22,471 nucleotides of DNA from a virus (lineage: Duplodnaviria > Heunggongvirae > Uroviricota > Caudoviricetes): the IMG/VR virus record IMGVR_UViG_2778261136_000010. One strand, 5' to 3'. The position numbers and the translations under genes were made by a program. Numbering within the stretch: the stretch's first letter is position 1; each line of letters begins with the position of its first letter. Under the pieces are notes generated by a model that was not told the DNA's origin, did no database searches, and was given only the letters and a program-made list of their open reading frames with translations. Positions 1-22,471 of the stretch are shown here, piece after piece.

Positions 1-1125
1 AAGCGTGAAGCTACCCATATCAGGTATCTGATTCGCCCCTGTCCCTACATTCCTTTTAGCCGCTTCTCCCAAACCAAGGTATGTGAGAAGACCAGCTACA
101 TCCTTTCCACTCAAATTGGTAAGCGTATTGTCCAGCGGTTGTTTACCTGCCAGCGCATTAAGCATTGTCGTGGCAAAGTTCGGATCATTCCCCAGTGCCG
201 CCGCCAGTTCGTTCAGTGTATCCAGTGCAGCAGGTGCAGAACCCACCATTCCTGCAATCGCCGATTTCACAAAAGCCGTAGTGGCAATCTGTGTATTGTT
301 GACCGACTGCGCCGCCGTGGGGGCTGTTGGCGTTCCGGTGAGTGCCGGACTCGACAACGGTGCTTTTAGTGCCAGCGCATTGTTAATGGTGGTACTGAAA
401 TTCGGATCATTGTTAATGGCTGCGGCTATTTCTTTCAGCGTGTCCAGCGTGGCTGGCGCACCATTAATAAGGGCCGTCAGTGCCGCCTGTACAAACGCAG
501 TGGTCGCAACCTGCGTGGTATTATTCCCCGCCGCTGGCGTTGGCGCTTTGGGGGTTCCGGTAAATGTCGGGCTGGCTTTTGGCGCGTACTGTGAATGCGG
601 GTCCGGTGCGGCAAGATGTTTTGCCATCTGATCATCCGCGTACACCTTCAGCTCCAGTGCCTTGTCATCCACATACTTGCGGGTTGCCAGCACTACAGCA
701 GGGTCGATTTTCAGGGTGATATTGTCCGTGCTGCTGGTAATCAGCACCATGCGCACGGTCTGAGTGCGCCCGCTACCTTCAGCCAGTTGCGGCTTATAGC
801 TTTCCGGGCAGTTGCCCACGGCAATCAATGCCCCGGACTCATCAAACAAGCCCACTTCACGTATCCACCAACCGCCCTCGTTTTCAGGGATCACCTGTTC
901 GGCAATAATCTGGCTGCTGTTCTGCGGGTCGATATAAAGCATATTCAGCGCAGCCCGGCGTTTCTCATTTACCAGTGCCGTCTGCTTTGCGTCCGGCGTT
1001 GGCAATGCTCCGCCGCCATCGCCCACCGCCATATGGGTAATTTTTAGCGGCACACCGAGCGCGGCGGCGCTGGCAAGTTTCGCCGCGCCAATATCCGTCA
1101 GCAGGGTATAAAATTTTGTGCTCAT
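1..1125 (-). CDS. H: Tail fibre protein gpH, N-terminal ~375 codons (partial; 3' end lies beyond window start)
   Basis: Reverse-complement from ATG at 1125 reads [35 protein letters not shown], resembling the P2 gpH N-terminus. ATG overlaps the gpI stop (ATGA). Not in the ORF track because no stop falls inside the window; an open frame to position 1 is assumed, not verified base by base. Confidence 0.85.
151..593. repeat. Two diverged tandem copies (~221-222 nt each) inside the tail fibre coding region
   Basis: Seen directly: 'cagcgcatt' at 151 and 372; 'ttcggatcat' at 179 and 401; 'ggcgttccggt' / 'gggggttccggt' at equivalent offsets. Consistent with repeated collar/shaft modules of phage tail fibres. 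Confidence 0.6.
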
Positions 1126-2974: not shown

Positions 2975-3549
2975 ACCGGGCCTCCGGTTGTGTCGCCGCC
3001 TTTCAGGACGCCAGTATGCTGATGTGCATCAACCACAATCCCGTTAGAACTCATCACTCCGCCGCCCTGGGTAACGCCACCATTGATCACCACTTCGCTG
3101 TTAATGCGCGTGTGGTCAGCCTCCAGTACAAACTCACTGGTTTTCATGGTGATGTTGTCAGCGGCCTCAATGACCATTGATTTGATGCCCCTTACATACC
3201 AACGCCCGGTGGCAGGTTCGTATTCAAACCAGCCACCGTCAGGATGTTCTGTCACGCAGGCGTCTGCCGACGTCGACGGTGGCGCGAACTGATTCGAATA
3301 GATGGCGGGCAGCGCAAAGGCTGTTTCCAGATTGCCGCCCAGACTCAGTAGCACCACCTGCTCACCTTCCGATGGTCGCCACCATGTCCGGGCATTACCC
3401 GCGCGCAGCGTCAGCCAGTTAATCCAGTTGGTTTCAAGGTCGCCCGTTTTCACCCGGCAAAGCCAGTTTTCCCTGTCCACTTCGGTGACTACCCCTGTGC
3501 GGATCAGGTTGGTGATAAGGCGCATGATTTCGGTTAATTGTGCGTTCAT
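2971..3549 (-). CDS. V: Baseplate spike/hub protein gpV
   Basis: 192 aa, ATG at 3549; MNAQLTEIMRLITNLIRTG...WWRPSEGEQ resembles the P2 gpV N-terminus. No obvious Shine-Dalgarno upstream. Confidence 0.85.
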   Translation of the reverse strand: MNAQLTEIMRLITNLIRTGVVTEVDRENWLCRVKTGDLETNWINWLTLRAGNARTWWRPSEGEQVVLLSLGGNLETAFALPAIYSNQFAPPSTSADACVTEHPDGGWFEYEPATGRWYVRGIKSMVIEAADNITMKTSEFVLEADHTRINSEVVINGGVTQGGGVMSSNGIVVDAHQHTGVLKGGDTTGGPV

Positions 3550-6099: not shown

Positions 6100-6303
6100 T
6101 CAGTCCCATAGCTGGACGGTCTGCACGGTGGTGGTGGTCGGAATGTCCGGCAGCTCCACCTGCAGCCCGTGAGGTAAAAAGGGGCCATATTCGGCAAGCC
6201 CCGGATTTGCCTTCAGTACCTGCTCCGTGACACCCTGCGTGCGCCCGTAATGACGCCAGCAAAGCGCGTCCACCGTGTCATACTGATGCGCACGCACTTT
6301 CAT
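6100..6303 (-). CDS. X: Tail protein X (LysM-like)
   Basis: 67 aa, same length as P2 gpX; MKVRAHQYDTVDALCWRHYGRT... ATG overlaps the L stop (ATGA). Confidence 0.8.
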   Translation of the reverse strand: MKVRAHQYDTVDALCWRHYGRTQGVTEQVLKANPGLAEYGPFLPHGLQVELPDIPTTTTVQTVQLWD

Positions 6304-6767
6304 CAGATAAGCTCCACTGTGCAGTGCGGCGCATCCTGCACCCGACTGATGGCCCAGCGGGCGTCACGCCACAAATCACCGCTGGATTCCGCCAGTTCCT
6401 CGCCCCGCTTCACACCGGATGCCGTGGCGTCATAGTCCTGGTAACGTTCGTTGAGCATGGCGCGTGCCCAGCAGTAAACCGCGTTGAAATAGTGCTGAAT
6501 GCGCTCGCTTTTGCCGTCCAGTTGTTCCGCCGGGACTTCTGCCAGCGAGGCATACCCCAGCATCTGCTGGCGTCTGCGAAACTCATACAGCTCTGCGTTG
6601 ACCTCCGAAATTGCCGACAGCGCAACCTGCTTTAAACGCGGCTGCGTCACCGTGCCGTCAGTGCGCATCACGCTGCGAAACTCCGACAGGTCCACATCAG
6701 GCCAGAACGGCGTATTTCTGATGATTTCCGCCTGTTCCGGTGCCTGTTCTGGCGCAACAAACTTCAT
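6303..6767 (-). CDS. L: Head completion/stabilisation protein gpL
   Basis: Start placed at ATG 6767 (MKFVAPEQ...) with a strong AGGAGAAAG Shine-Dalgarno. The ORF track alternative is GTG at 6830 with no Shine-Dalgarno. Position between M and X. Confidence 0.75.
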   Translation of the reverse strand: MKFVAPEQAPEQAEIIRNTPFWPDVDLSEFRSVMRTDGTVTQPRLKQVALSAISEVNAELYEFRRRQQMLGYASLAEVPAEQLDGKSERIQHYFNAVYCWARAMLNERYQDYDATASGVKRGEELAESSGDLWRDARWAISRVQDAPHCTVELI

Positions 6768-6862
6768 GCTGCTTTCTCCTGAAATAGAGGGCGGTGGACG
6801 GGATTTTGATGTGGCTGTGCCTTTCGCCACCCCGTGCCGCCCGTGCGCGGGGGCACGTTCTG

Positions 6863-7513
6863 TCAGCGGCTGTCATTGCGCAGTCTGCGCTCCAGCTGCT
6901 GTTTGTCTTTTTTCACGCCACAGCGGGGATCGAGCTGTAACGCATGGTTGAGATGGTTAAGGGCAGAAGCCGGATTGCTTTCACTCAGGACAGCGCCAAT
7001 CGCTTTATGCAGACGCGCCCGTGACTGGTCCGGCATATCCAGACCGTCTGTCAGCTCCAGCGTCTGCAACAACAGATCGGCATCAAAGCCGGTGGCGGCA
7101 AGCATTGCGCTCTGCGCCGCGTCTGCCATTTCCTCTGCCAGCACGGTCTGCACATTGCGGTTACCCAGCGGCATCACCCAGCCATGACGCAGGGCATGAC
7201 GCCCGATCTCCAGCGCCCCGGCATAATCTCCGGCATCAATGCGCCACAGCATCACGTACATCAGCACGTCATCCTGCTGTGCGCCTCCGGCAGTCAGGAC
7301 ACCCTCTGCCCAGGCGGCGTACTTCGGCAGCAGTTCCACCTTGATTTCCGCTTTTTTGACCGTGGACTGAACGCCCTTGAGACGGCGGCGGTCTTCCGCC
7401 AGTTGCAGCAGCATCAGGTCATAGCCCGACGCGTGGCGAACACTGCCGCCCTCGCGGGCGGCCTGTTCAGCCTGAACGCGCAGGCGATGCTGCCGTGCGG
7501 GACTCAGGCTCAT
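6863..7513 (-). CDS. M: Terminase endonuclease (small) subunit gpM
   Basis: 216 aa, ATG at 7513; MSLSPARQHRLRVQAEQAAREGGSVRHASGYDLMLLQLAED resembles the P2 gpM N-terminal region. Confidence 0.85.
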   Translation of the reverse strand: MSLSPARQHRLRVQAEQAAREGGSVRHASGYDLMLLQLAEDRRRLKGVQSTVKKAEIKVELLPKYAAWAEGVLTAGGAQQDDVLMYVMLWRIDAGDYAGALEIGRHALRHGWVMPLGNRNVQTVLAEEMADAAQSAMLAATGFDADLLLQTLELTDGLDMPDQSRARLHKAIGAVLSESNPASALNHLNHALQLDPRCGVKKDKQQLERRLRNDSR

Positions 7514-7516
7514 GGT

Positions 7517-8575
7517 TTATGCTCCGGCTTCTGCGGCGGCGGCGCTGAAGTCGCCAATCTGGATGTTTTCCACCAGTGCTGCGCAGCGGTAGTCCTCAAC
7601 CACATAGGCTTCGTTAACGGATTCAAAGTTTTCAATCCGGTCACGTTTCGGGTTGTCGATAACTGAACGGCGGCGGGTGTCTTCCTGCCAGTAGATGGAC
7701 AAGTTATCCAGACGGGTGATCAGCAGCGCATTCGGCGGGAAGAACGGCGCACGCACGGCCTGCAGACCGCCCATGCGTTTCTGACTGATAATCATATCGG
7801 CAGCCAGTTTTTCACTGTTTTCCTGCTCTTTGTTGACCAGCGGGAAATACTTGTCAGACAGCAGTTCACGCCCGCAAATCACCACCAGATCGTCATCGTC
7901 CTGGTAGACCACGTCGATAAGCTCATTGACGGCATCCATCACCACTGCGTCCAGGTTGGCATATTCGCCACCTTTACCGACTTTCACCGCACCCGGTGTG
8001 GTTTCACCGCCCGTGGTGCTGCTGCCCATGACGTGATCCGGTGCATCCTCACGGATTTTCTGTAACCAGCCTTTGTTCACATCCTGCAGCAGCGGGTTTT
8101 CGCTACGGTTGGAGGTTTTCGCACGCTTCACGCCGTTAAAGCCGATCATGATGCGATCCAGTGCCTGACGTTTCACGATGGCGTCACGGATACGCACCTG
8201 GAAATCCTGAAACTTCGCCCACAGGTCCAGCTTCGCGTAGGTCAGTACCGTGTCAAAATTGGTCTGCTCGCATTTGTATTCCACATCGATCATCAGCGTA
8301 GGATCGACAGGTTCACGCTCTTTCGCGGTGGTGTCAGTGGTTCCGGCAATGGTGCTACCAACACCCAACCCCAGCAGCTGACCGGACTGCTCAGTCACTG
8401 GCGTGACGTTAATCAGCGTCAGGAAAGCGGCGGACTGCTGGATCTGGTCTTCCAGCGTCTGCTGTACAGACGGCTCCACGGTGAACTTGCTGGACAGTTC
8501 TTCAACTGCCACACCGTTCAGACGCGCCAGCTGCTGCAGGTAAGCGTTAAAAGCAAAACGGGTATTCTTCTTCAT
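7517..8575 (-). CDS. N: Major capsid protein gpN
   Basis: 352 aa, ATG at 8575; size and position as P2 gpN (between O and M). Confidence 0.9.
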   Translation of the reverse strand: MKKNTRFAFNAYLQQLARLNGVAVEELSSKFTVEPSVQQTLEDQIQQSAAFLTLINVTPVTEQSGQLLGLGVGSTIAGTTDTTAKEREPVDPTLMIDVEYKCEQTNFDTVLTYAKLDLWAKFQDFQVRIRDAIVKRQALDRIMIGFNGVKRAKTSNRSENPLLQDVNKGWLQKIREDAPDHVMGSSTTGGETTPGAVKVGKGGEYANLDAVVMDAVNELIDVVYQDDDDLVVICGRELLSDKYFPLVNKEQENSEKLAADMIISQKRMGGLQAVRAPFFPPNALLITRLDNLSIYWQEDTRRRSVIDNPKRDRIENFESVNEAYVVEDYRCAALVENIQIGDFSAAAAEAGA

Positions 8576-8591: not shown

Positions 8592-9425
8592 TCAGCAATT
8601 GGTCAGAGTGTCAGCGGTGGCGTTACCGCCTGTTGCACGCTGGCGGTAGTCCTGGCGGCTGTCTTCATGACTCAGCTTATTCACCAGTTCGTTAAAGGCG
8701 GTTTGCTGTTCCTGCAGAGCAGTCTCCAGTTCAGACAGGCGTTCTTCCTGCTCAGACAGGGATTTTTCGGTGCGTGCGCTCAGGTTCTGCTGCTCAGTGG
8801 CGACCAGCTCCACGGCCTTATGCACATCAGAGAACCGGACATCGTCGGACTGCTCTTTTTTGGTAAACAGCGCCGTGACGCGGGCAAACAGGGACGGTTT
8901 GTCATCCTGGATTTCTTCCAGTTCGATCACCGTTTCCTCTGCGGCGGTAAAGAGATTGGCGGGATTCTGCTTGCGGTTTGCCAGCGGGTTATGGGCTGCG
9001 CTGGCGCTGAATGTCAGCATTTCCGTACCCAGACTGGCAGGATCATCTGTGGCAGCCAGGCCGACCAGGTAGGCTTTGCCCGTATCAGCGAACTTCGGGC
9101 TGACTTCCATAGAGGTGAATAATTTCTGGCCTTTTTTCACCAGTTCCACCAGGGACTCCGTTGGCTCAACGTCAGCATACAGCGCCATCTTGCCTGCCAG
9201 CGGACCTTCCGTGATTTCTTCAGCAAACAGCGCCGTCACCTTGCCGTAGCGGTTAAAAATGCTGTCCGGCAGATAAGACTTGATGTGCTCAAGGTTAATC
9301 AGCGCGGTATACACCGCCGGGTTATAGCTGGCTGCCATCTGTTCCAGCCATTCACGCTGGATTTCGCGTCCGTCGGTGGTGGCACCTTCCACCCCGATGC
9401 GAAAACGCTTTGCTTTCACTGTCAT
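8592..9425 (-). CDS. O: Capsid scaffolding protein gpO
   Basis: 277 aa, ATG at 9425 with GGAG upstream; acidic coiled-coil C-terminal half typical of a scaffold; divergent from P as in P2. Confidence 0.9.
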   Translation of the reverse strand: MTVKAKRFRIGVEGATTDGREIQREWLEQMAASYNPAVYTALINLEHIKSYLPDSIFNRYGKVTALFAEEITEGPLAGKMALYADVEPTESLVELVKKGQKLFTSMEVSPKFADTGKAYLVGLAATDDPASLGTEMLTFSASAAHNPLANRKQNPANLFTAAEETVIELEEIQDDKPSLFARVTALFTKKEQSDDVRFSDVHKAVELVATEQQNLSARTEKSLSEQEERLSELETALQEQQTAFNELVNKLSHEDSRQDYRQRATGGNATADTLTNC

Positions 9426-9567: not shown

Positions 9568-11334
9568 ATGAACACCACACTGACACCCGCAGATCTCGAT
9601 CCCCGTCGGCAGGCCATGCTGCTGTACTTTCAGGGATACCGCGTAGCCCGCATTGCTGAAATGCTGGGCGAGAAAGTTGCAACCGTTCACAGCTGGAAAA
9701 AACGCGACAAGTGGGGTGACTATGGGCCGCTGGATCAGATGCAGCTCACCACCGCCGCACGCTACTGCCAGCTCATCATGAAGGAGCACAAAGAAGGGAA
9801 AGATTTCAAAGAGATTGACCTGCTGGCGCGCCAGTCTGAGCGCCACGCGCGGATCGGTAAGTTTAACAATGGCGGCAACGAAGCCGACTTAAACCCTAAC
9901 GTCGCCAACCGCAACAAAGGCCCACGCCGTCAGCCGGAAAAGAACGTTTTCACCGATGAACAGATTGAGAAGCTGGAAGAAATTTTCCATTCCTCCATGT
10001 TCAACTACCAGCGCCACTGGTGGGAAGCCGGAAAAACCAACCGCATCCGCAACCTGCTGAAGTCTCGCCAGATCGGCGCGACCTTCTATTTTGCCCGTGA
10101 AGCCCTGATTGACGCCCTGCTTACCGGACGTAACCAGATTTTCCTTTCTGCCAGTAAGGCACAGGCCCACGTCTTCAAACAGTACATCATCGACTTTGCC
10201 AAAGAAGTGGAGGTGGAGCTGAAAGGCGATCCGATGGTGCTTCCCAACGGGGCCACACTGTATTTCCTCGGCACCAATGCCCGCACTGCCCAGAGTTATC
10301 ACGGCAACCTGTATCTGGATGAATATTTCTGGATACCGAAATTCCAGGAGCTGCGCAAAGTGGCTTCCGGTATGGCTATTCACAAAAAATGGCGACAAAC
10401 CTATTTTTCCACGCCATCCAGTCTGACACACAGTGCTTATCCGTTCTGGTCCGGTGCGCTATTCAACCGTGGGCGCAACAAGGCCGACAAGGTGGACATC
10501 GACCTGTCCCACAGCAATCTGGCCCCCGGCCTTCTGTGCGCAGACGGGCAATACCGCCAGATAGTCACCGTGGAAGATGCGGTACGCGGCGGCTGTAACC
10601 TGTTCGACCTTGACCAGTTGCGCATGGAATACAGCCCGGACGAATACCAGAACCTGCTGATGTGCGAGTTTGTGGACGATCTCGCGTCCGTGTTCCCGCT
10701 CAGCGAGCTGCAGGCGTGCATGGTGGACAGCTGGGAAGTCTGGACCGACTTTCATGCACTGGCGCTGCGCCCGTTTGGCTGGCGCGAAGTGTGGATCGGT
10801 TATGACCCGGCAAAAGGTACGCAAAACGGCGACAGCGCCGGATGCGTAGTGGTGGCACCGCCAGCCGTGCCTGGTGGTAAGTTCCGCATTCTTGAGCGTC
10901 ACCAGTGGCGCGGGATGGACTTCCGCGCCCAGGCTGACGCCATCAAAAAACTGACCGAGCAGTACAACGTGACCTACATCGGCATCGACTCGACAGGTGT
11001 CGGCCACGGGGTTTACGAGAACGTGAAAGCGTTTTTTCCAGCCGTCCGGGAGTTTGTCTACAACCCCAACGTTAAAAACGCTCTGGTACTCAAGGCCTAC
11101 GACATTATCAGCCACCGCCGTCTGGAGTTTGACGCCGGGCACACCGACATTGCGCAGTCATTCATGGCAATCCGTCGCGCCACCACCGCCAGTGGCAACC
11201 GCCCAACCTATGAAGCCAGCCGCAGCGAAGAAGCCAGCCACGCCGATCTGGCCTGGGCAACAATGCACGCACTGTTTAACGAACCGCTGCAGGGCGAGTC
11301 CGCCAATACCAGCAATATTATGGAGATTTTTTGA
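9568..11334 (+). CDS. P: Terminase large (ATPase) subunit gpP
   Basis: 588 aa, ATG at 9568; stop overlaps the Q start. Size and position as P2 gpP. Confidence 0.9.
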   Translation: MNTTLTPADLDPRRQAMLLYFQGYRVARIAEMLGEKVATVHSWKKRDKWGDYGPLDQMQLTTAARYCQLIMKEHKEGKDFKEIDLLARQSERHARIGKFNNGGNEADLNPNVANRNKGPRRQPEKNVFTDEQIEKLEEIFHSSMFNYQRHWWEAGKTNRIRNLLKSRQIGATFYFAREALIDALLTGRNQIFLSASKAQAHVFKQYIIDFAKEVEVELKGDPMVLPNGATLYFLGTNARTAQSYHGNLYLDEYFWIPKFQELRKVASGMAIHKKWRQTYFSTPSSLTHSAYPFWSGALFNRGRNKADKVDIDLSHSNLAPGLLCADGQYRQIVTVEDAVRGGCNLFDLDQLRMEYSPDEYQNLLMCEFVDDLASVFPLSELQACMVDSWEVWTDFHALALRPFGWREVWIGYDPAKGTQNGDSAGCVVVAPPAVPGGKFRILERHQWRGMDFRAQADAIKKLTEQYNVTYIGIDSTGVGHGVYENVKAFFPAVREFVYNPNVKNALVLKAYDIISHRRLEFDAGHTDIAQSFMAIRRATTASGNRPTYEASRSEEASHADLAWATMHALFNEPLQGESANTSNIMEIF

Positions 11335-12362
11335 TGGGAAAGAGTAAGAAAAACCGCGCTGCGGCGACGAATCAGCTCAAGCATAAAAGCCAGAATTCAG
11401 CCGAAGCATTCAGCTTTGGCGATCCCGTTCCTGTTCTGGACCGCCGTGAACTGCTGGACTATGTGGAATGCGTACAGATGGACCGCTGGTATGAGCCGCC
11501 CGTCAGCTTTGACGGACTGGCACGAACCTTCCGCGCCGCCGTGCATCACAGCTCACCGATTGCAGTAAAATGCAACATTCTGACCAGTACCTACATCCCT
11601 CACCCGCTGCTCAGCCAGCAGGCTTTTTCACGTTTTGTGCAGGACTATCTGGTATTTGGTAACGCTTACCTGGAGAAACGCACGAACCGGTTCGGTGAAG
11701 TTATCGCCCTTGAGCCTGCTCTGGCAAAATACACCCGACGTGGGTTAGACCTGGATACCTACTGGTTTGTGCAATACGGTATGGCAACCCAGCCGTATCA
11801 GTTCACGAAAGGCAGCATCTTTCATCTGATGGAACCGGATATTAATCAGGAGATCTACGGCCTGCCTGGCTATCTTTCTGCTATTCCATCCGCTCTGCTC
11901 AACGAGTCCGCCACGCTGTTCCGCCGGAAGTATTACATTAACGGCAGTCATGCAGGCTTCATCATGTACATGACCGATGCCGCGCAAAACCAGGAAGATG
12001 TGAACAACCTCCGCAACGCGATGAAAAGCGCCAAAGGTCCGGGCAATTTCCGCAACCTGTTTATGTACTCGCCTAACGGCAAAAAAGATGGCATTCAGAT
12101 TATCCCGTTATCGGAAGTCGCGGCGAAGGATGAGTTTTTGAATATCAAGAACGTGAGCCGGGACGACATGATGGCAGCACACCGTGTGCCGCCACAAATG
12201 ATGGGGATTATGCCTAATAATGTTGGGGGATTTGGGGATGTGGAGAAGGCGAGCTTGGTCTTTGTTCGTAATGAACTGATTCCTTTACAAAAAAGACTGA
12301 TGGAAGTAAATGTCTGGCTCAATGAAGAAGTGATTGTATTCAATAGATACATTTTAGAGTAA
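11334..12362 (+). CDS. Q: Portal protein gpQ
   Basis: ATG at 11334 overlaps the P stop (TGATG); ~342 aa; position and size as P2 gpQ. The last ~50 codons have visibly different, AT-rich codon usage. Confidence 0.9.
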   Translation: MGKSKKNRAAATNQLKHKSQNSAEAFSFGDPVPVLDRRELLDYVECVQMDRWYEPPVSFDGLARTFRAAVHHSSPIAVKCNILTSTYIPHPLLSQQAFSRFVQDYLVFGNAYLEKRTNRFGEVIALEPALAKYTRRGLDLDTYWFVQYGMATQPYQFTKGSIFHLMEPDINQEIYGLPGYLSAIPSALLNESATLFRRKYYINGSHAGFIMYMTDAAQNQEDVNNLRNAMKSAKGPGNFRNLFMYSPNGKKDGIQIIPLSEVAAKDEFLNIKNVSRDDMMAAHRVPPQMMGIMPNNVGGFGDVEKASLVFVRNELIPLQKRLMEVNVWLNEEVIVFNRYILE

Positions 12363-12386
12363 AAAAATGGGCACCATGAGGTGCCC
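12361..12386 (-). terminator. Intrinsic terminator for the minus-strand cargo gene
   Basis: Seen: stem GGGCACC (12369-12375), loop ATGA, stem GGTGCCC (12380-12386). On the minus strand the hairpin is followed by a 7-T run (12361-12367, the A-run on plus). Lies between the cargo gene stop (12393) and the Q stop (12362). Confidence 0.6.
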
Positions 12387-12392
12387 AAGTTG

Positions 12393-13817
12393 TTACTTAC
12401 GTGTTTCAACTATATTCAGCCCCTTATAAAGGCTTTGATGGATATATACAGAACCAGTATTTGGCAACATTAAATCAGCATCTTCACATCGGAATCTAGC
12501 CGTACCGGAATTGCCCAACCGGACACCAATCACAGAAGCATTAAATAGAGTTTTCATCAATTCACGAGAAGTATAGCGCTTACAAAGGTCAGGCGCTTTC
12601 TCTTCAATCTTACTGATGAATTCTTCTGTAGAATTATATCTATGCTGCGTCTGACGTAAAGATTCCAATAGCTCACCAAAATGAGGGTAGAGCCTTTTGT
12701 ATTCTTGTTTTAAGTCCTCAACTTTCCAAGCGCTGTACCGTTCTTCAGCTATTCTAATTATATCCTTTTTTATTTCAGAAGCATTAGCATCACAGCGTTT
12801 TTGGCATTCTTGCAAAAACTGAATAACTTCTCTTGGGCGCAAAAATGTGCGCTTCACCAAATAGTTAAATGGTGAAATACTTCCTCTCATTTCACCTTCC
12901 TCAAAAATATCATCTATAGTTATATTTTCCGGCAATCTGGCGTTCACCATATCTTTCAACAACTCTGGTGTCCAGATTATTTCTTCTTCAATTGCTCGGT
13001 GTTTATCTTTATCATCAAATTCCAGCCCTTGATAAATATCAGAGCGTAAAAATGTTACAATATGAATACCTTTGGCTCTAGTATCAGAATAACTATCATT
13101 AATATCTTTTGTTGCCTTCAACAAGCCAATCAAAAGGCTTTTGGCATCATCCGATCCATCCCAAGAATCATCTAATCGATCAGTGGCAATTAGCACCCCA
13201 ATATCTGTACAAATTTCTTTAAGCTCGTCAAGGATGATTTTTATTATTTGAGGTGTCAATGGTGCTTGCGAAGCATCCTTATTAAACCCCACAGCATATC
13301 CGAAAGCCTCAAAATTGAATGAACTTAATCCCGAGAGTAACTTCCTTGCAGTTCCCAAAGTAGTTGGCGATATACCACCATAGTTATCAGAAACAAATTT
13401 TTTAATTCTAGCAAGGGCCTCCCGAGGTCTTTTCTCTGAAAATTGCCTACCTGACCTAATAATTTCTGCCGCAGCCTCAACAGCTATTGCAAATTTCCAA
13501 GCATTACAATGTGCCTGTTCGGGTAACAACCCTTGCTCTTGATATTGTTTTAATGCTCCCCAAGCATACTGGTCTGGGGTCATGACATTTACGATAACGT
13601 CCTGCCCATATTTTGCTCTTACCAACCTTGGGAGTTGGGTAAAGATGGATGATTTCCCAGCCCCCTTTCTTCCAAGAAAATGGGCACTATAGAAACTCAG
13701 AGCTTGCTCAACTTGAGGAGTATTGATGAAATAATCAGCCAACCTTCTATCAGCTTCAGCATCGACAGTACCAAAGTTGAGTCCCTTAACTGTAAGGCCT
13801 AACGCATCTAACCGCAC
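12393..13817 (-). CDS. Hypothetical P-loop NTPase (474 aa), AT-rich cargo gene in the cos-proximal variable region; candidate phage-defence / exclusion protein, family not recognised
   Basis: GTG start at 13817 with an AAGGA Shine-Dalgarno 6 nt upstream. Walker A GRKGAGKS at residues 49-56; Walker B-like GVLIATDRLDD near residues 207-217. Markedly lower GC and different codon usage (AGA, ATA, TTA) than flanking phage genes. Own terminator. No TOPRIM or other effector motif recognised by eye. Confidence 0.7.
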   Translation of the reverse strand: MRLDALGLTVKGLNFGTVDAEADRRLADYFINTPQVEQALSFYSAHFLGRKGAGKSSIFTQLPRLVRAKYGQDVIVNVMTPDQYAWGALKQYQEQGLLPEQAHCNAWKFAIAVEAAAEIIRSGRQFSEKRPREALARIKKFVSDNYGGISPTTLGTARKLLSGLSSFNFEAFGYAVGFNKDASQAPLTPQIIKIILDELKEICTDIGVLIATDRLDDSWDGSDDAKSLLIGLLKATKDINDSYSDTRAKGIHIVTFLRSDIYQGLEFDDKDKHRAIEEEIIWTPELLKDMVNARLPENITIDDIFEEGEMRGSISPFNYLVKRTFLRPREVIQFLQECQKRCDANASEIKKDIIRIAEERYSAWKVEDLKQEYKRLYPHFGELLESLRQTQHRYNSTEEFISKIEEKAPDLCKRYTSRELMKTLFNASVIGVRLGNSGTARFRCEDADLMLPNTGSVYIHQSLYKGLNIVETRK

Positions 13818-13904
13818 GATAATTCCTTAATTGGTAAACTAAATTTGAACTTGATGCCAACAAAGATAATATCAATTTAATTAAAAAGAAAGCTGTTGCG
13901 CGCG

Positions 13905-13923
13905 CTCGTATCCCCGCCACGCC
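13905..13923 (-). other. Candidate cos site (19-nt cohesive-end sequence)
   Basis: Minus strand reads GGCGTGGCGGGGATACGAG. The first 13 nt match my recollection of the conserved start of P2/186 cohesive ends (GGCG[A/T]GGCGGGGA...). Orientation is consistent with the left end running towards Q. Not verified against a database. Confidence 0.5.
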
Positions 13924-13964
13924 TGCCCGCTTTATGTAGTGGTTTTCATGCACCTGCATGATCT

Positions 13965-13992
13965 ACGCAAAAGCCCGCCAGTTCTGGCGGGC
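13965..13992 (-). terminator. Putative intrinsic terminator downstream of the tum-like operon
   Basis: Seen: GCCCGCCA-GTTC-TGGCGGGC hairpin (13973-13992), followed on the minus strand by TTTTGCG. Confidence 0.45.
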
Positions 13993-14127
13993 CTTAGCAA
14001 AAACGATCCTCAAACGATCATGCGATCTCATGCGGCATAGACATGCACTACAGAGCTAACGCCTCGCAAGGGCTCGTTGTTCAACGTTGCTGACGCCAGA
14101 AACAAGTTCAGACGCCAGCAACGTTTC

Positions 14128-14361
14128 TTAATGCAGCCAGCTGTCGTCTTCCCACACCTTCTGCATAATTTTCATCACTTGTTTTCTTTCTTCGTCCAGT
14201 TGCAGTCCGGTCAGTTCCACACCGTTAGAGCTACCTTTGCGGATACGAATTACCGTTTTGGGATACAGGGGGCGCAGATTGCGGTAAAGCTCGGATTCAA
14301 GGGCGTCCAGTGTAGACAGGCTAATCTTCTGCTCTTTATCGATCATTATTTCAATGCGCAT
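14128..14361 (-). CDS. DinI-family protein (SOS-regulated; homologous to the DinI-like part of the 186 Tum antirepressor)
   Basis: Start placed at ATG 14361 (MRIEIMIDKEQKISLSTLDALESELYRNL...VWEDDSWLH), with a GAGGTGA Shine-Dalgarno upstream. Aligns by eye with E. coli DinI (MRIEVTIAK...ETWESADDWFVSE). The ORF track extends to 14433. Confidence 0.8.
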   Translation of the reverse strand: MRIEIMIDKEQKISLSTLDALESELYRNLRPLYPKTVIRIRKGSSNGVELTGLQLDEERKQVMKIMQKVWEDDSWLH

Positions 14362-14371
14362 AAAAGTCACC

Positions 14372-14560
14372 TCAGCTGATGACATCCATTGAGCGGTTGT
14401 ATTCGTGGGTTCTGATTTTTGCCATGAGTTCATCTGTCAGTTCAGAAACCCACTGCAGGGCCAGCCCCTTCTCTTCATCACTACACTCACTAGCAGCTAC
14501 AAGCTTAAGAAAAAAATCAATGCGCTGGAGCTTCAAAGACTCCAAAAAATAGTCCTGCAT
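14372..14560 (-). CDS. Small protein (62 aa), first gene of the LexA-controlled operon; possibly the N-terminal part of a split Tum-like antirepressor
   Basis: ATG at 14560 with an AGGAGG Shine-Dalgarno 4 nt upstream; stop TGA at 14372-14374 lies 11 nt before the DinI-like ATG. No recognisable motif. Confidence 0.5.
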   Translation of the reverse strand: MQDYFLESLKLQRIDFFLKLVAASECSDEEKGLALQWVSELTDELMAKIRTHEYNRSMDVIS

Positions 14561-14712: not shown

Positions 14713-17127
14713 TTAATACAGATTCCGCCACTTATCATCTTCCTGCAAACGCTGGTTCCGATAGAAGATACGCAGGCCTGCTCCTGACGGAATACTGCCA
14801 CCGCGAAGGAGTAAATCGACCTCTTTCTCGCTGCCATCAAATCCTCTGGACTTCAGTTCATAGACGAGCTGCTGTCGCTGATGATCTGTAATTCGCTGTT
14901 TGTAGTCTTTACGCCGTTTCGGCTTAACCAGGCGTAACCTTGCTGCCAGCTCCCGGCGCTCTTTTTTGCTCATACTGTGCAGGTAATCGTGCAACTCCTT
15001 GTCATCCATGCGGGTAATGTCCGTTCTGGTGTCCCCATCAGCTGATTTATCTTTCTCCTGTTGGTTCAAATTTTCCGCAAGGGGACAGTTATTGCCACGA
15101 GTCCAAGGGGCGCAAGCGCCCTGGTCGGCTGCCGCCTCCTGAACGTCAACGGCTTTACGAACCATTTTCCACTTCACTGCATGAGTGCAGATCTTGCCCT
15201 CTGCAATGGGTGACCAGATGCCATAAATACGAATGCCGTGATCGCCATAGGCGGTCGGCTCTTCGTTGATTTCATAAGCGGTTCTGATGAGGTGATATTT
15301 ACGGGGAACCAGTACGCCGCCCTGCTTCATGATGTAGGTGGCAAAACAACCAGCATCAGCAGCAGCCAGGATGGCATCAAGGCGCGGGTTATCCAGTACC
15401 GGCGCACCTGCTTTTTTGTCCCCCTGTTGCCTTGCCGCCTGACCAGCCAGCAATCGCAGTTCACGGTAAGCCTGACGCCCCGGAATGCCAAAGAAGCGGA
15501 ATTGCTGAACACGATGCAAAGACGCCCAGGCATTCACGTATTCAGCGTTATCACGCAGAGATTTACCCGTTTCCTTGCTGATCTCGCCAGCCAGACCACG
15601 CCCGTCAATGTTCTTACTGATGTATTTCGCTATGTAGCTTGTCGGCGTTCCTTTGCGCGGGTTAATCAGCTCAGACTTAAAGCGCGGCCCCGTGTTATTG
15701 CCCAGCTCCTCGCGGTCTTCACGGATAGCAAACTTACGCAACAATGCAGTAATGGCGCGGCGGTCTTTTTTGCGCATGAAACACAACAGGTGCCAGTGAA
15801 CTGTGCCGTCGTGATGCGGCTCAGCCACCCGCACGCCATACCAGCGCAACCCGGCTTTGTGCATCGCCTTACGAAATGCAGCAAACATACCGACCAGATA
15901 ATCGCTGCTTTGTCTTACCGTCGCATTTGTCCAGGTCGGGTTGGGCCTGCCGTTATTTAGCGTGGAATGGAAACGTGACGGACAGGTGATGGTGTAGAAA
16001 ACGGCGCAGTCACCGCGCATTTCCGCGATAAGCTCCAGACCTTTAACACAGGCCATCATCTCATTGCGGCGATGCGCAGGGTTGCTGCTGCTGGCGTTTA
16101 CCACATCCTCCATATCCAGCGTGTCGCCGTCTTCGTTCACCAGTTCATGAGAACGGAAAAACTCCAGCGACTTACGGCGCTGCTCACGTTTATGCATCAC
16201 GGCTTCATAGCTGACATAGGGAGATGCTTTTTTGCTGACCAGGCAAACAGCACGCAACTGCTCTTCCCGCCATTCGCAACGCATCTTCCATAATTTCCGG
16301 TACCACCAGTCGGCGCACAACATACGCGCCAGCGAACCCGGAATGAGTTCATAGGGCACGGGTTTACGGCGGTTTCTTTTCCGGCGGAGTTGCTCAAACG
16401 CAGGCGGTATGACATCCAGTCGCAGGGTTTCTGCTGCCACCTTTTCCCATGTCTTGCGGATTTCTTCTGGCTTAACATCATCGGTGGCGTACAAATCACC
16501 ACAAGCGGCATCAAGACACATGCTCATATGCGCAGCGACAAGAGTAGACAGGCGTTTCACCTGATTCTGACTCATTTCAGGCAGGATCAGCAGACCCTCC
16601 AGCCCTTGATGGCTTGCCATAAAACGGAAAGAAACAGATAGCTGACTGTCACGTACACAATCCAGTCGCTCCAGACATGGCTTAATCGTCTCACGCAAAT
16701 AGCGGGAATAAGCCTTTGGCCTGCCCAGGCTGCTGAAGTATTCGATACGTTGCATCAGCGGCTTGCTGATGTGGGTGGGCTGGGCGCTGACGTCCGCCAG
16801 AATGACCATGTCCGGGTTAAAACGCTGCTGCTCATGCGCCAGCTTTGCCCGACTAATGAGCTTATCCTGCTCCATTTCGCGCTGGACAGGATCACGGGAT
16901 TCATTAAAGAAATAACGCTCCCAGACCTGTTCACTCAATTCCTCGCGGCGCAGCTGTTCCTGCTCGTTATCGGCAGCATACAGAGTGATCAGGTTTGAAA
17001 GCGCAGAAACCGGCGCAACTTCCGCCGGGTCCAGATAAGGGTTTATGGCCTTTTTCGGGCCATTCCATGAAAATGCTGCAGCGGCCTCGTTAAAGCCGCT
17101 AGAGTCGCTCATATCGTCATGACTCAT
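14713..17127 (-). CDS. A: Replication initiation protein gpA (rolling-circle HUH endonuclease)
   Basis: 804-aa ORF with ATG at 17127; HUH motif in [11 protein letters not shown]; tyrosine motif YIAKYISKN. Position as P2/186 A. Confidence 0.85.
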
Positions 17128-17981
17128 ACACGCACCTCGTACAAAGCAGAACTATCCACACCACGCGAAGGATCAAATCCCATCCAGCAGCGCGGCCCGG
17201 AAACAGCAATGATTTCTGTTGCAGATTTACTCTCGCCAGCTACCACGCCGATGCTGCGTTTTGCCTTGATGTAGTGGTGAGTGAAATTGCGATACAGCGA
17301 ACGAATCAGGGATGTGTCACTGTTAGAAACAATGACCGGATGACCTTCAGATGATCGATGTTCAAGAACGGATGCCAGGTGATACTGGTCATCCTCAGTG
17401 AAGCCATCAGTGTGATAGCCGGAAAACGTACCGTCATAAGGCGGATCGCAATACACCACATCCCCCGCCTTCAACATCGCCAGCGTTTCATCAAAGCTGG
17501 CGCAGATAAACGTTGCTCGCTGGGCTTTCTCTGCAAATGCGCGAATTTCTTTTTCAGGGAAATACGGATTTTTATAATTACCGTAGGGAATGTTGAAATG
17601 CCCGCTCTTGTTATAGCGACATAAACCACGGTAACCGTGACGATTGAGATACAGGAAATATATCGCCTTCATGAAATCAGTAATTTCAGTTGAGTAATTA
17701 AACTCCTGCCTTATGTTGTAATAAGCCAGCTCACTGTTTGCTTCCTCAAATAAAGCTCTGGCACGAGATATAAACGCCTCGCAATCAGCAGCAACCTTTT
17801 TATAGAGGTTGATTAAATCAGGATTAATATCCGCAACCAGATAGCTGGGATAATCCGTCTCCATCATCACAGCACAGGAACCCGCGAAAGGTTCAACCAG
17901 TCGCGGGCCAGCAGGAAGATGTTTTTTCAGTTCGGACATAATTGCGGTTTTATTTCCCGCCCATTTCAGGATGGTGCTCAT
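17124..17981 (-). CDS. dam: DNA adenine methyltransferase (Dam family, GATC-type N6-adenine MTase)
   Basis: Start placed at ATG 17981 ([11 protein letters not shown]...) with a GGAGGTG Shine-Dalgarno; motif I FAGSCAV, motif IV DPPY; aligns by eye along its length with E. coli Dam. Stop overlaps the A start (ATGA). The ORF track extends to a TTG at 18041. Confidence 0.9.
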
Positions 17982-18205
17982 ACAGCACCTCCGTTGTAAT
18001 GTTTGCCTTTCAGCTCTGCGATTTCCTGACAGATAATGCAAAGCTGCACTCCAGGAATGGCGCGGCGGCGTGCTGGCGGAATTGGTGCTTCACATTCAAT
18101 GCAAAGCACGCGAGACACGCCCGGTGTTTTGGCACGGGCAGCACGGATATGGCGCTGGCGTTCTTCTTCAACGCGCTGCTGTACGAGATCCATTGCATCA
18201 GCCAT
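17978..18205 (-). CDS. TraR/DksA-family C4 zinc-finger protein
   Basis: 75 aa; CIECEAPIPPARRRAIPGVQLCIICQ resembles F-plasmid TraR (CEACGNPIPEARRKIFPGVTLCVECQ). Stop overlaps the dam ATG. Confidence 0.85.
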   Translation of the reverse strand: MADAMDLVQQRVEEERQRHIRAARAKTPGVSRVLCIECEAPIPPARRRAIPGVQLCIICQEIAELKGKHYNGGAV

Positions 18206-19566: not shown

Positions 19567-20076
19567 TCACAGCAAACCGAATGAAGCACCAAGGCCGGTC
19601 ACGGTATCAACTGCACTCGCCATCGCAGGATTAGCCTGTAAACGGGCCTGCAATGAAACAGCCGCCAGCGCCATCAGTCGTGTTACAGAGTTAATGCTGC
19701 TGATAGCATCACGACGACCGGCACAGGTTTTTACATCGCCAGATACCGCACCTGCAGCAACACGCCCGATCTCTGCAGTTGCACTCATGACGTAATGTGG
19801 CAGTTTCTCTTTTGCCACCTCATTAATCGGTACACATGGCAGACAATGAATCTGTGCCAGAAAACCATCTACCAACGTTGAATCTTCAGTCAGATCGGTA
19901 AGCAGCCAGATTTCTGGTGCGGTTAATAAATGAGGTTGAGCTGGGTTCAGCTTGTTCCGCAGAATCTGCACATTCATGCCCGCACGTTCTGCCAGTTGCA
20001 CCAGGTTGTGGCGCAGTGCGAATTCACGACAGGCTTCATCAAAATGTGGATGTTTGGAAACTTGGTAATCAAACAT
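19567..20076 (-). CDS. cII: CII-like lysogeny establishment regulator (186 CII homologue)
   Basis: Start placed at ATG 20076, giving 169 aa ([15 protein letters not shown]...[15 protein letters not shown]...). Length and sequence match my recollection of phage 186 CII. The ORF track gives a TTG at 20082. Confidence 0.85.
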
Positions 20077-20108
20077 GGTCAATGCCTCTGATGTATCTCA
20101 GAATCGAA

Positions 20109-20330: not shown

Positions 20331-20455
20331 GATGCAACATTCCTCGTTTAATGATGATTAATCAGGACGAATACGGATCGTTTGTATTTTGTGAACACCA
20401 TAAACATACGATCGCACAATGAAATCGTCAAGATAAAAGTTCACTTGGAGTGACC
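20331..20455. promoter_or_regulatory. Lysis/lysogeny switch region between apl and cI
   Basis: Candidate apl promoter on minus: TTGACG (20431-20426), 17-nt spacer, TATGTT (20408-20403). Candidate cI promoter on plus: TGAACA (20392-20397), 17 nt, CACAAT (20415-20420). These are assignments by eye; operator sites not resolved. Confidence 0.45.
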
Positions 20456-21025
20456 ATGAATTTGGAGAAAGGCGGACGAGGCGCTATAGAGCGCATGGTA
20501 GAAGCTTATGGATTCAAAACTCGACAGGCGTTGTGCGATCATTTAGGAATCTCTAAAAGTACACTCGCCACACGCTACATGCGTGACTCATTCCCAGCAG
20601 AATGGGTAATCCAGTGCGCCCTTGAAACGGGCACCTCGCTTAATTGGCTCACAACCGGACATGGTTCAAAGCAAACTTCAGGTAATACAAATACTATGGA
20701 AGTTGCTAAATATGTATTATCTGATGGTGCCTTGCGTGAAGACAGTTTTTATATTTTTGATAAGGGATTTCTACCCTCTACGTTTAAAAAACCTTTTGTC
20801 ATCACAGATAACAATTCTGAATTTATTTGTGATAAAGAATTTGATGATATACGTGATGGTAAATGGGTAATAAGTATTGATGGCGAAATAACAATCCGCG
20901 ACATTACTCGTTTACCCGGTGGAAGAATCTTCGTTGAAGGTGGAAACAGAGCCTTCGAGTGCAAGATAGAAGATGTTGAAATAATTGGAAAAATTATAAG
21001 TTTAACAATTAAGTACGTTAGGTAA
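20456..21025 (+). CDS. cI: CI immunity repressor (186-type)
   Basis: Start placed at ATG 20456 with GGAG upstream, giving 189 aa; N-terminal HTH (TRQALCDHLGISKSTLATRYMRD). The ORF track gives a GTG at 20450. Confidence 0.85.
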   Translation: MNLEKGGRGAIERMVEAYGFKTRQALCDHLGISKSTLATRYMRDSFPAEWVIQCALETGTSLNWLTTGHGSKQTSGNTNTMEVAKYVLSDGALREDSFYIFDKGFLPSTFKKPFVITDNNSEFICDKEFDDIRDGKWVISIDGEITIRDITRLPGGRIFVEGGNRAFECKIEDVEIIGKIISLTIKYVR

Positions 21026-21232: not shown

Positions 21233-21365
21233 TTTTTGCTTTTATATCTGCGCCTAATATAACAATGAGGCGCAGGCTAACCACAAAAGTTACATACTCA
21301 CATAACAAAAAATAGCCAACTTCATTATGGCTTCAGTGAGATGTATGGTCGCGGGATTTCATACA

Positions 21366-21394
21366 TTGACACTGGTTATATATACAGTAAAAAT
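21366..21394 (+). promoter_or_regulatory. Candidate int promoter with an overlapping LexA-box-like palindrome
   Basis: Seen: perfect -35 TTGACA (21366-21371), then CTGGTTATATATACAG (21372-21387), which is CTGT-N8-ACAG with one mismatch, then a TAAAAA -10-like hexamer. GGAGG at 21405-21409 and int ATG at 21419. Confidence 0.3.
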
Positions 21395-21418
21395 GCTCTC
21401 CACTGGAGGGCATTTTTT

Positions 21419-22471
21419 ATGGCAGTACGAAAACTCACCACAGGAAAATGGCTTTGCGAATGTTACCCCGCCGGACGTAGTGGACGTCGTGTGCGTAAAC
21501 AATTCGCCACCAAAGGCGAAGCTCTGGCTTTTGAGCGTCACACGATGGAAGAAACCGAAGCAAAGCCCTGGCTGGGTGAATCAGTAGATCGTCGAACACT
21601 GAAAGACGTGGTTGAGCTATGGTTCAAACTACATGGTAAATCACTGACTGCTGGGCAGCATGTCTATGACAAATTGCTGCTGATGGTTGACGCTCTGGGC
21701 AATCCCCTTGCAACTGATCTCACATCTAAAATGTTTGCCCACTATCGAGATAAACGCCTGACAGGTGAGATCTACTTCAGCGAGAAATGGAAGAAAGGAG
21801 CCAGCCCGGTCACCATTAACCTGGAGCAAAGCTATCTAAGTAGTGTTTTTAGCGAACTATCCCGCCTGGGCGAATGGTCGTATCCAAACCCACTGGAGAA
21901 CATGCGAAAATTCACCATCGCAGAAAAAGAGATGGCATGGCTTACCCATGAGCAGATTGTTGAACTGCTGGCTGATTGCAAACGTCAGGACCCAATTCTG
22001 GCACTGGTAGTTAAGATATGCTTAAGCACAGGCGCACGCTGGCGTGAAGCCGTAAATCTTACCCGCTCACAGGTGACCAAATACCGAATTACCTTTGTAA
22101 GAACGAAGGGGAAGAAAAACAGAAGCATCCCTATCAGTAAAGAGCTTTACGAAGAGATCATGGCGCTTGATGGGTTCAATTTCTTCACAGACTGCTATTT
22201 TCAATTTTTATCCGTAATGGAAAAAACGTCTATCGTGCTCCCTCGCGGTCAACTGACACACGTTCTGCGCCATACGTTTGCGGCGCATTTCATGATATCG
22301 GGTGGAAATATCCTTGCTTTGCAAAAAATCCTCGGACATCACGATATAAAAATGACTATGCGTTACGCTCATCTGGCACCGGATTATCTGGAAACGGCGC
22401 TCCGTTTCAATCCTCTGGCAACGCTGCCAAGTGGCGACAAAGTGGCGGCAGCGGTTGGCATTACCCCGTAA
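21419..22471 (+). CDS. int: Tyrosine integrase (P2/186 Int family)
   Basis: Start placed at ATG 21419 (MAVRKLTTGKWLCECYPAGRSGRRVRKQF...), ~350 aa; C-terminal catalytic motifs HVLRHTFAAHF...LGHHDIKMTMRYAHL. Stop TAA is the last 3 nt of the window. The ORF track extends to 21341. Confidence 0.9.
   Translation: MAVRKLTTGKWLCECYPAGRSGRRVRKQFATKGEALAFERHTMEETEAKPWLGESVDRRTLKDVVELWFKLHGKSLTAGQHVYDKLLLMVDALGNPLATDLTSKMFAHYRDKRLTGEIYFSEKWKKGASPVTINLEQSYLSSVFSELSRLGEWSYPNPLENMRKFTIAEKEMAWLTHEQIVELLADCKRQDPILALVVKICLSTGARWREAVNLTRSQVTKYRITFVRTKGKKNRSIPISKELYEEIMALDGFNFFTDCYFQFLSVMEKTSIVLPRGQLTHVLRHTFAAHFMISGGNILALQKILGHHDIKMTMRYAHLAPDYLETALRFNPLATLPSGDKVAAAVGITP

Follow-up and report, generated by a model that had tools for sequence, protein, structure and literature searches.

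The window examined here, a stretch of 22,471 nucleotides assigned to the Caudoviricetes (IMG/VR record IMGVR_UViG_2778261136_000010), carries part of a P2/186/Fels-2-type prophage, in reverse orientation relative to the P2 map. The genes assigned, together with the features of the region between the portal gene and the DinI/Tum-like gene, were the following (positions refer to the whole window):

6303-6830, minus strand: head completion protein gpL (Pfam)
6863-7513, minus strand: small terminase subunit, gpM-like (PF05944, E 4.9e-40)
7517-8575, minus strand: capsid protein gpN (Pfam)
8592-9425, minus strand: scaffold protein gpO (Pfam)
9568-11334, plus strand: large terminase subunit, gpP-like (PF06056, PF03237, PF17289)
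11331-12362, plus strand: portal protein, gpQ-like; as in P2 and 186, the gene is directed toward cos (PF04860)
12368-12387, no strand assigned: hairpin between the portal and cargo stop codons (-16.5 kcal/mol, z -5.3)
12393-13817, minus strand: cargo open reading frame of 474 aa with a GTG start and the Walker A motif GRKGAGKS (NCBIfam NF047389, P-loop ATPase of the Sll1717 family, E 2.5e-84, full length)
13818-13897, minus strand: AT-rich cargo leader of 80 nt with 24% GC (by composition)
13898-13904, minus strand: left-flank 7-mer CGCGCGC, the last conserved cos bases (7/7 in P4, 6/7 in P2, 186 and PSP3)
13905-13923, minus strand: predicted 19-nt cohesive end GGCGTGGCGGGGATACGAG (identical to the 'cos site' of SEN8, 15/19 against 186)
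13924-13952, minus strand: proximal right-end arm TGCATGAAAACCACTACATAAAGCGGGCA, which with the 19-mer and CGCGCGC makes up a 55-bp core (13898-13952)
13953-14048, minus strand: distal right-end arm (80-99% conserved across 116 loci, its architecture kept in diverged loci)
14128-14433, minus strand: DinI/Tum-like gene (PF06183)
14713-17127, minus strand: replication gene gpA (Pfam)
17124-18041, minus strand: Dam-type methylase (Pfam)
19567-20082, minus strand: 186-type CII (Pfam)
20450-21025, plus strand: 186-type CI (Pfam)
21341-22471, plus strand: integrase, continuing to the window end (Pfam)

Pfam searches showed that a P2-type terminase pair, gpM plus gpP, is encoded by the same element as the 19-nucleotide motif, and that all packaging genes in the window are full-length. 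The gpM-like protein is expected to be the subunit that recognizes cos, and the gpP-like protein the enzyme that cuts it. The order of the elements is gpA, DinI, the motif and the cargo gene, followed by the portal and terminase genes on the opposite strand. The motif occupies the position that cos has in P2, 186 and PSP3, with right-end accessory genes on one side and the portal gene on the other, and at the predicted right end the gene order closes with the DinI/Tum-like gene, just as it closes with tum in the 186 and PSP3 records. Since the RefSeq homologues of the DinI/Tum-like protein are 77 aa long, its true start is probably internal.

The initial annotation had read a candidate cos motif on the minus strand directly upstream of the cargo gene and had likened it to the beginning of P2/186-type cohesive ends. 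Both observations held: GGCGTGGCGGGGATACGAG is the exact minus-strand reading of positions 13923 to 13905, and its first 13 nucleotides are those of the annotated cohesive end of 186 and PSP3 (13/13). The GC-rich start of P2/186-type cohesive ends, GGCG(A/T)GGCGGGG, was likewise matched by the window 19-mer at 13 of 13 positions. The 13-mer GGCGWGGCGGGGA was found as a single copy in the 22.5-kb window (13911-13923, minus strand), where about 0.0007 exact matches would be expected by chance. A search of the window for the full 186 19-mer, allowing up to three mismatches, gave no match. The window 19-mer has four mismatches to it, at positions 14, 16, 17 and 19 (15/19 identical), so that the 3' third of the window motif represents a distinct variant. 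Over its whole length it was identical to the ends of 186/PSP3 at 15 of 19 positions and to those of P2/P4 at 14 of 19.

The database records of P2, 186 and PSP3 begin at their annotated cohesive ends (GGCGAGGCGGGGAAAGCAC in P2, GGCGTGGCGGGGAAAGCAT in 186 and PSP3); right and left ends were therefore joined and the alignment was anchored on the 19-mer. From -29 to +26 (window positions 13952 to 13898), the window aligned without gaps with 186 (44/55 identities), PSP3 (45/55), P2 (42/55) and P4 (43/55), and 39 of the 55 columns were invariant among the window and these four phages. The chance probability of at least 42 identities in 55 positions is about 2e-12. This alignment with the P2 and 186 cos regions, which had been proposed as a check of the motif, came out in its favor, at 42-45 identities over the 55-bp core.

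Previous work by Ziermann and Calendar (1990), as cited in PMC3931495 and PMC9594776, is credited with a conserved 55-bp cos common to P2 and P4. The terminase of P2 packages the genomes of both P2 and its satellite P4, and these two resemble each other over the same 55-bp stretch only. After the 19-mer P4 continues with CGCGCGC, as does the window, and it departs from P2 at +26, where the window also departs. The bases flanking the predicted nicks (GCGGGCA before, CGCGCGC after) as well as the 19-bp spacing between them were conserved with P2, P4 and 186, whose ends were annotated from direct determination. The note in the 186 record, applied by analogy, would put the minus-strand nick between 13924 and 13923 and the plus-strand nick between 13905 and 13904, which would leave 5' overhangs. 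The exact position of the bottom-strand nick is an extrapolation, because 4 of the last 6 bases differ from 186. When the literature was searched for experimentally mapped ends of the 19-mer variant with ATACGAG, only annotation-based statements emerged. We also considered symmetric half-sites, in which GCGGGCA was compared with the reverse complement of CGCGCGC; they matched at 5-6 of 7 positions per genome, which was too weak for more than a suggestion.

With the Eganvirus phages 186 and PSP3, the window shares the first 13 nt of the cohesive end, 44-45 of the 55 core positions, the register of the TGCAT repeats and, toward the right end, a Tum/DinI gene. It differs from them at 19-mer positions 14, 16, 17 and 19 (ATACGAG in the window vs AAAGCAT), and from 186 also in that the cos-portal interval of the latter, of about 180 bp, has no cargo, whereas its accessory gene orf97 lies on the opposite side of cos. 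P2 and P4 share with the window 42-43 of the 55 core positions, and in both of them a hypervariable accessory locus adjoins cos; however, position 5 of their 19-mer is A (T in the window), positions in the 3' third also differ, and the accessory genes old and tin of P2 are situated on the right-end side of cos instead of between cos and the portal gene.

The interval 13818-13930 initially proposed for the site includes the 19-mer and the leader, but most of cos (13924-14048) lies beyond it, on the right-end side of the cut. In this arm, GCATG repeats at 14046, 14033 and 14023 were in register with the TGCAT repeats of P2, P4 and 186. More generally, (T/C)GCAT repeats at about -124, -111, -101 and -29 stood in register in P2, P4, 186, PSP3, SEN8 and the window, and the density of four GCATG per 130 nt was the maximum on that strand of the window. 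A direct repeat, GATCGTTT, was present at 14001-14019. The arm also contains a hairpin followed by a U-tract (13967-13998; -23.4 kcal/mol, z -5.0), located 45 nt before the cut site, which should be the terminator of the DinI transcript. In diverged loci a hairpin was found at the same place, with different stem sequences. An Rfam search of the whole window returned no RNA family match.

Four GATC sites within 75 nt occur together nowhere in the window but in this arm, at positions 13960-14027, and the GATC sites at -96 and -85 were conserved in 107-108 of 116 related loci, diverged ones included. Together with the Dam-type methylase encoded by the phage (17124-18041), this conserved pair makes a methylation-sensitive recognition of cos, comparable to that of the P1 pac site, conceivable, although as a weaker possibility. 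Two further repeats were observed in this part of the window. A perfect 8-nt inverted repeat, GCATGATC/GATCATGC, at 13956-13963 and 14016-14023, brackets the terminator hairpin, and each of its arms includes a GCATG motif and a GATC site. Another inverted repeat (14083-14125), 3' of the DinI gene, has 19-nt arms with 84% complementarity and a 5-nt loop, and ends about 2 nt from the stop codon of that gene (14128-14130). It could bind a protein, or act as a first terminator in the manner of t95a in 186.

We also analyzed conservation around the motif. An ungapped profile of 116 unique IMG/VR loci showed 80-99% conservation from about -125 to +26, falling from +27 onward to 30-40%, in AT-rich and unrelated sequence; the 116 loci had 108 distinct downstream sequences. 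The window copy equals the family consensus across the 55-bp core, which is consistent with an intact site. The most frequent end points of homology to the phage backbone, as determined by blastn, were 13898, toward cos, and about 12335-12362, at the portal stop. The portal-proximal junction was set by blastn, since a search with 30-nt anchors gave no placement. From these sharp limits we delimited the conserved cos block as 13898-14048. Between cos and the portal gene, the gap ranged from 154 to 3532 bp (median 1670 bp) in 86 loci, and it is 1542 bp in the window. Empty sites, in which the portal gene is about 180 bp off, read CGCGCGCAACGGGGTGAAATG where the window reads CGCGCGCAACAGCTTTC. 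The swappable slot of the window (12363-13897) has 39% GC, against 52.5% in the backbone.

A cos-adjacent hotspot between gpA and gpQ of P2-like phages has been published (Rousset et al., 2022, PMC9122126; NAR 2026, PMC13586616). The window resembles this defence hotspot in that the content between cos and the portal gene is variable and bounded by conserved cos and portal sequences, and differs from it in that its cargo is not a recognized defence system. In a separate observation, E. coli 18KM2445 (NZ_CP151004.1; positions 2412-2747 of locus L132) carried an extra gene for a hypothetical protein of 111 aa between DinI and cos, which indicates that accessory genes are possible on both sides of cos in this clade.

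The nearest relatives at the site were Salmonella phage SEN8 and its kin (the Felsduovirus phages Fels-2 and RE-2010 and the Elveevirus phage Cartapus), in which GGCGTGGCGGGGATACGAG followed by CGCGCGC is identical, the right-end arm agrees at 36 of 40 positions and the site has the same position between DinI and the portal gene. The SEN8 record begins with the identical 19-mer, which is annotated there as putative cos and named cos in the genome announcement, and the Cartapus record describes the same sequence as a putative cos, with homology to the P2 site; both annotations themselves rest on homology. In each of these phages the cargo begins directly past cos and is unrelated to that of the others, and the difference from the window is limited to this cargo: a hypothetical protein plus an HNH endonuclease in SEN8, a DUF4145 protein in Cartapus and the Sll1717-family ATPase in the window. 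The earlier proposal that the cargo gene is the first gene at the left end, by the convention of the P2 map, is supported by this homology, the gene order being the same in SEN8 and Cartapus.

The exact 19-mer was present, with the same flanks, in at least 120 IMG/VR viral contigs, and a portal gene was found downstream of it on the opposite strand in all IMG/VR loci that had a portal match (86/86). Among species-representative genomes (596 Gb), it occurred at 54 loci, 50 of which had conserved flanks. These 50 belonged mostly to Enterobacterales, in addition to Chitinimonas and to Pasteurella, where flank similarity was much weaker. The four loci without flanks came from metagenome-assembled genomes of unrelated phyla. 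About 4.3 such copies would be expected by chance, so an exact 19-mer is diagnostic only when its flanks accompany it.

Several of these occurrences had features of their own. In the betaproteobacterial genus Chitinimonas, the 19-mer was of the enterobacterial type and the cos core was diverged but recognizable; the exact 19-mer was found on five contigs of Chitinimonas sp. BJB300 and on three of C. taiwanensis, which suggests several P2-like phages or satellites per genome with one cos type. The IMG/VR contig IMGVR_UViG_3300011853_000021 contained two inverted copies of the 19-mer (3447-3465 and 6704-6722), 3.2 kb apart, inside a 940-bp inverted duplication of 92% identity with portal genes on both outer sides. 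This contig most likely arose when two related phages were assembled head to head into a chimera. A Logan contig that begins 22 nt upstream of the 19-mer was considered as a case of a physical end near cos and discarded, because the assembly probably broke off there, the conserved block being repeated.

The cargo gene was examined together with its surroundings. RefSeq annotates the same 474-aa open reading frame in E. coli 18KM2445. Searches with the cargo protein found no Pfam family and, by sequence, no PDB relative, and tblastn against 50,697 deposited phage records gave no match. Comparison with PADLOC yielded only PDC-M28C, with an unconvincing E value of 0.025, and among NCBIfam models there was a weak partial match to DS41_1_antiphage (25.9 bits against a cut-off of 370). 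Of 5,426 complete E. coli genomes, only 2 had the cargo gene in this cos-portal slot, and a copy of 92% identity occupied the same slot in some P2-like prophages of Klebsiella. A homologue of 66% identity in Aeromonas dhakensis stood alone in a non-phage chromosomal context, and homologues at 50-70% identity were spread across many phyla. Such a distribution is typical of mobile defence genes. Tentatively, the Sll1717-family ATPase may be an undescribed single-gene anti-phage or exclusion system in the cos-adjacent hotspot, with an extended -10 promoter of its own about 30 bp inside the left end; we regard this as possible but doubtful.

The hairpin between the portal and cargo stop codons is followed by T7 on the minus strand, and we therefore regard it as the terminator of the cargo gene; it is possibly bidirectional. 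On the other side of the gene, the AT-rich, promoter-like leader of about 85 bp described in the initial annotation was recovered as 87 nt with 30% GC between the 19-mer and the GTG start at 13817 (24% GC over the 80 nt past CGCGCGC). A ribosome-binding site, AAGGA, was found at 13828 to 13824 on the minus strand. A sigma-70 scan of 13818-13904 for -35/-10 pairs with 16-18 nt spacing found nothing at threshold, but the extended -10-like sequence TGATATTAT (13874 to 13866) was conserved: it lies within AATTGATATTATCTT, the longest stretch that is unchanged between the two variants of the leader, from E. coli and Klebsiella, which differ at about 19 positions elsewhere. TGATATTAT is one of three matches to TGNTAWWAT in the window, where 2.06 are expected. 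An extended -10 promoter in the leader is plausible from these sequence features. No stable RNA structure was predicted for the leader (z +0.2).

Three other explanations of the locus were weighed. The site could be a true homologue of cos but a relic that is never cut, either because the prophage is defective or because replacement of the left flank by cargo inactivated packaging. In favor of a relic, the window covers only part of the prophage (22 kb), and P2, 186 and PSP3 share some left-flank similarity beyond +26 that the window does not have. However, the P2 terminase packages P4 although that genome is also without this left-flank similarity, the window agrees with the family consensus over the 55-bp core, its packaging genes are full-length by Pfam, and unrelated cargo occupies this junction in SEN8 and Cartapus, which are isolated phages. 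We consequently consider a relic improbable. Still less probable, and by a clear step, is that the block is conserved because it serves another purpose, for instance in terminating or regulating the DinI/Tum operon, with cleavage positions or an overhang length that would then differ from those of P2 and 186. The strong terminator hairpin inside the block and the 3' third of the 19-mer, which differs from both P2 and 186, speak for this explanation; conservation of the nick-flanking bases and of the 19-bp spacing with P2, P4 and 186 speaks against it, as does the fact that conservation runs exactly to +26, as it does in the P2/P4 pair. A chance GC-rich match unrelated to packaging, of the kind represented by the four genome loci in unrelated phyla with the exact 19-mer but no flank similarity, is effectively refuted by the flank alignment, only about 0.0007 exact 13-mers being expected in the window while flanks, synteny and terminase genes all match.

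Collectively, the sequence of the motif, its homology to characterized sites, the synteny, the conservation boundaries and the presence of the terminase genes make it very probable that 13898-14048 is the cos of a temperate phage of the P2/186/Fels-2 type (Peduoviridae) with cargo first at its left end. If packaging proceeds as in P2, 186 and P4, the terminase formed by gpM and gpP would recognize the right-end arm through the GCATG repeats, TGCATGAAAACC and AAGCGGGCA. Since no more than seven conserved base pairs remain on the left-end side of the cut, the elements for sequence-specific recognition should lie in the right-end arm. The terminase would then nick the minus strand (13924/13923) and, 19 bp away, the plus strand (13905/13904), so that the virion genome would be linear, with 5' overhangs of 19 nt and with GGCGTGGCGGGGATACGAG at the start of its left end. 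Past the 19-mer, the predicted left end would continue with the seven conserved base pairs CGCGCGC and then with a hypervariable slot up to the portal gene, occupied in the window by one low-GC module composed of the AT-rich leader with its probable extended -10 promoter, the ATPase gene and the terminator. Because the cargo slot comes directly after the left-end cos bases, the cargo would be the first gene of the packaged genome.

Both the cos sequence and the neighboring hotspot have already been published, so that the finding is real but known, and the current understanding of P2-like phages is unchanged by it. The sharp boundary fits an exchange of cargo through homologous recombination in the conserved flanks, with the cos block on one side and the portal gene on the other. 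For this phage, the location of cos fixes the ends and the gene order of the packaged genome, and the boundary of the slot is set to the base, at 13897/13898, 7 nt past the cohesive end, which makes it possible to delimit the slot automatically in relatives.
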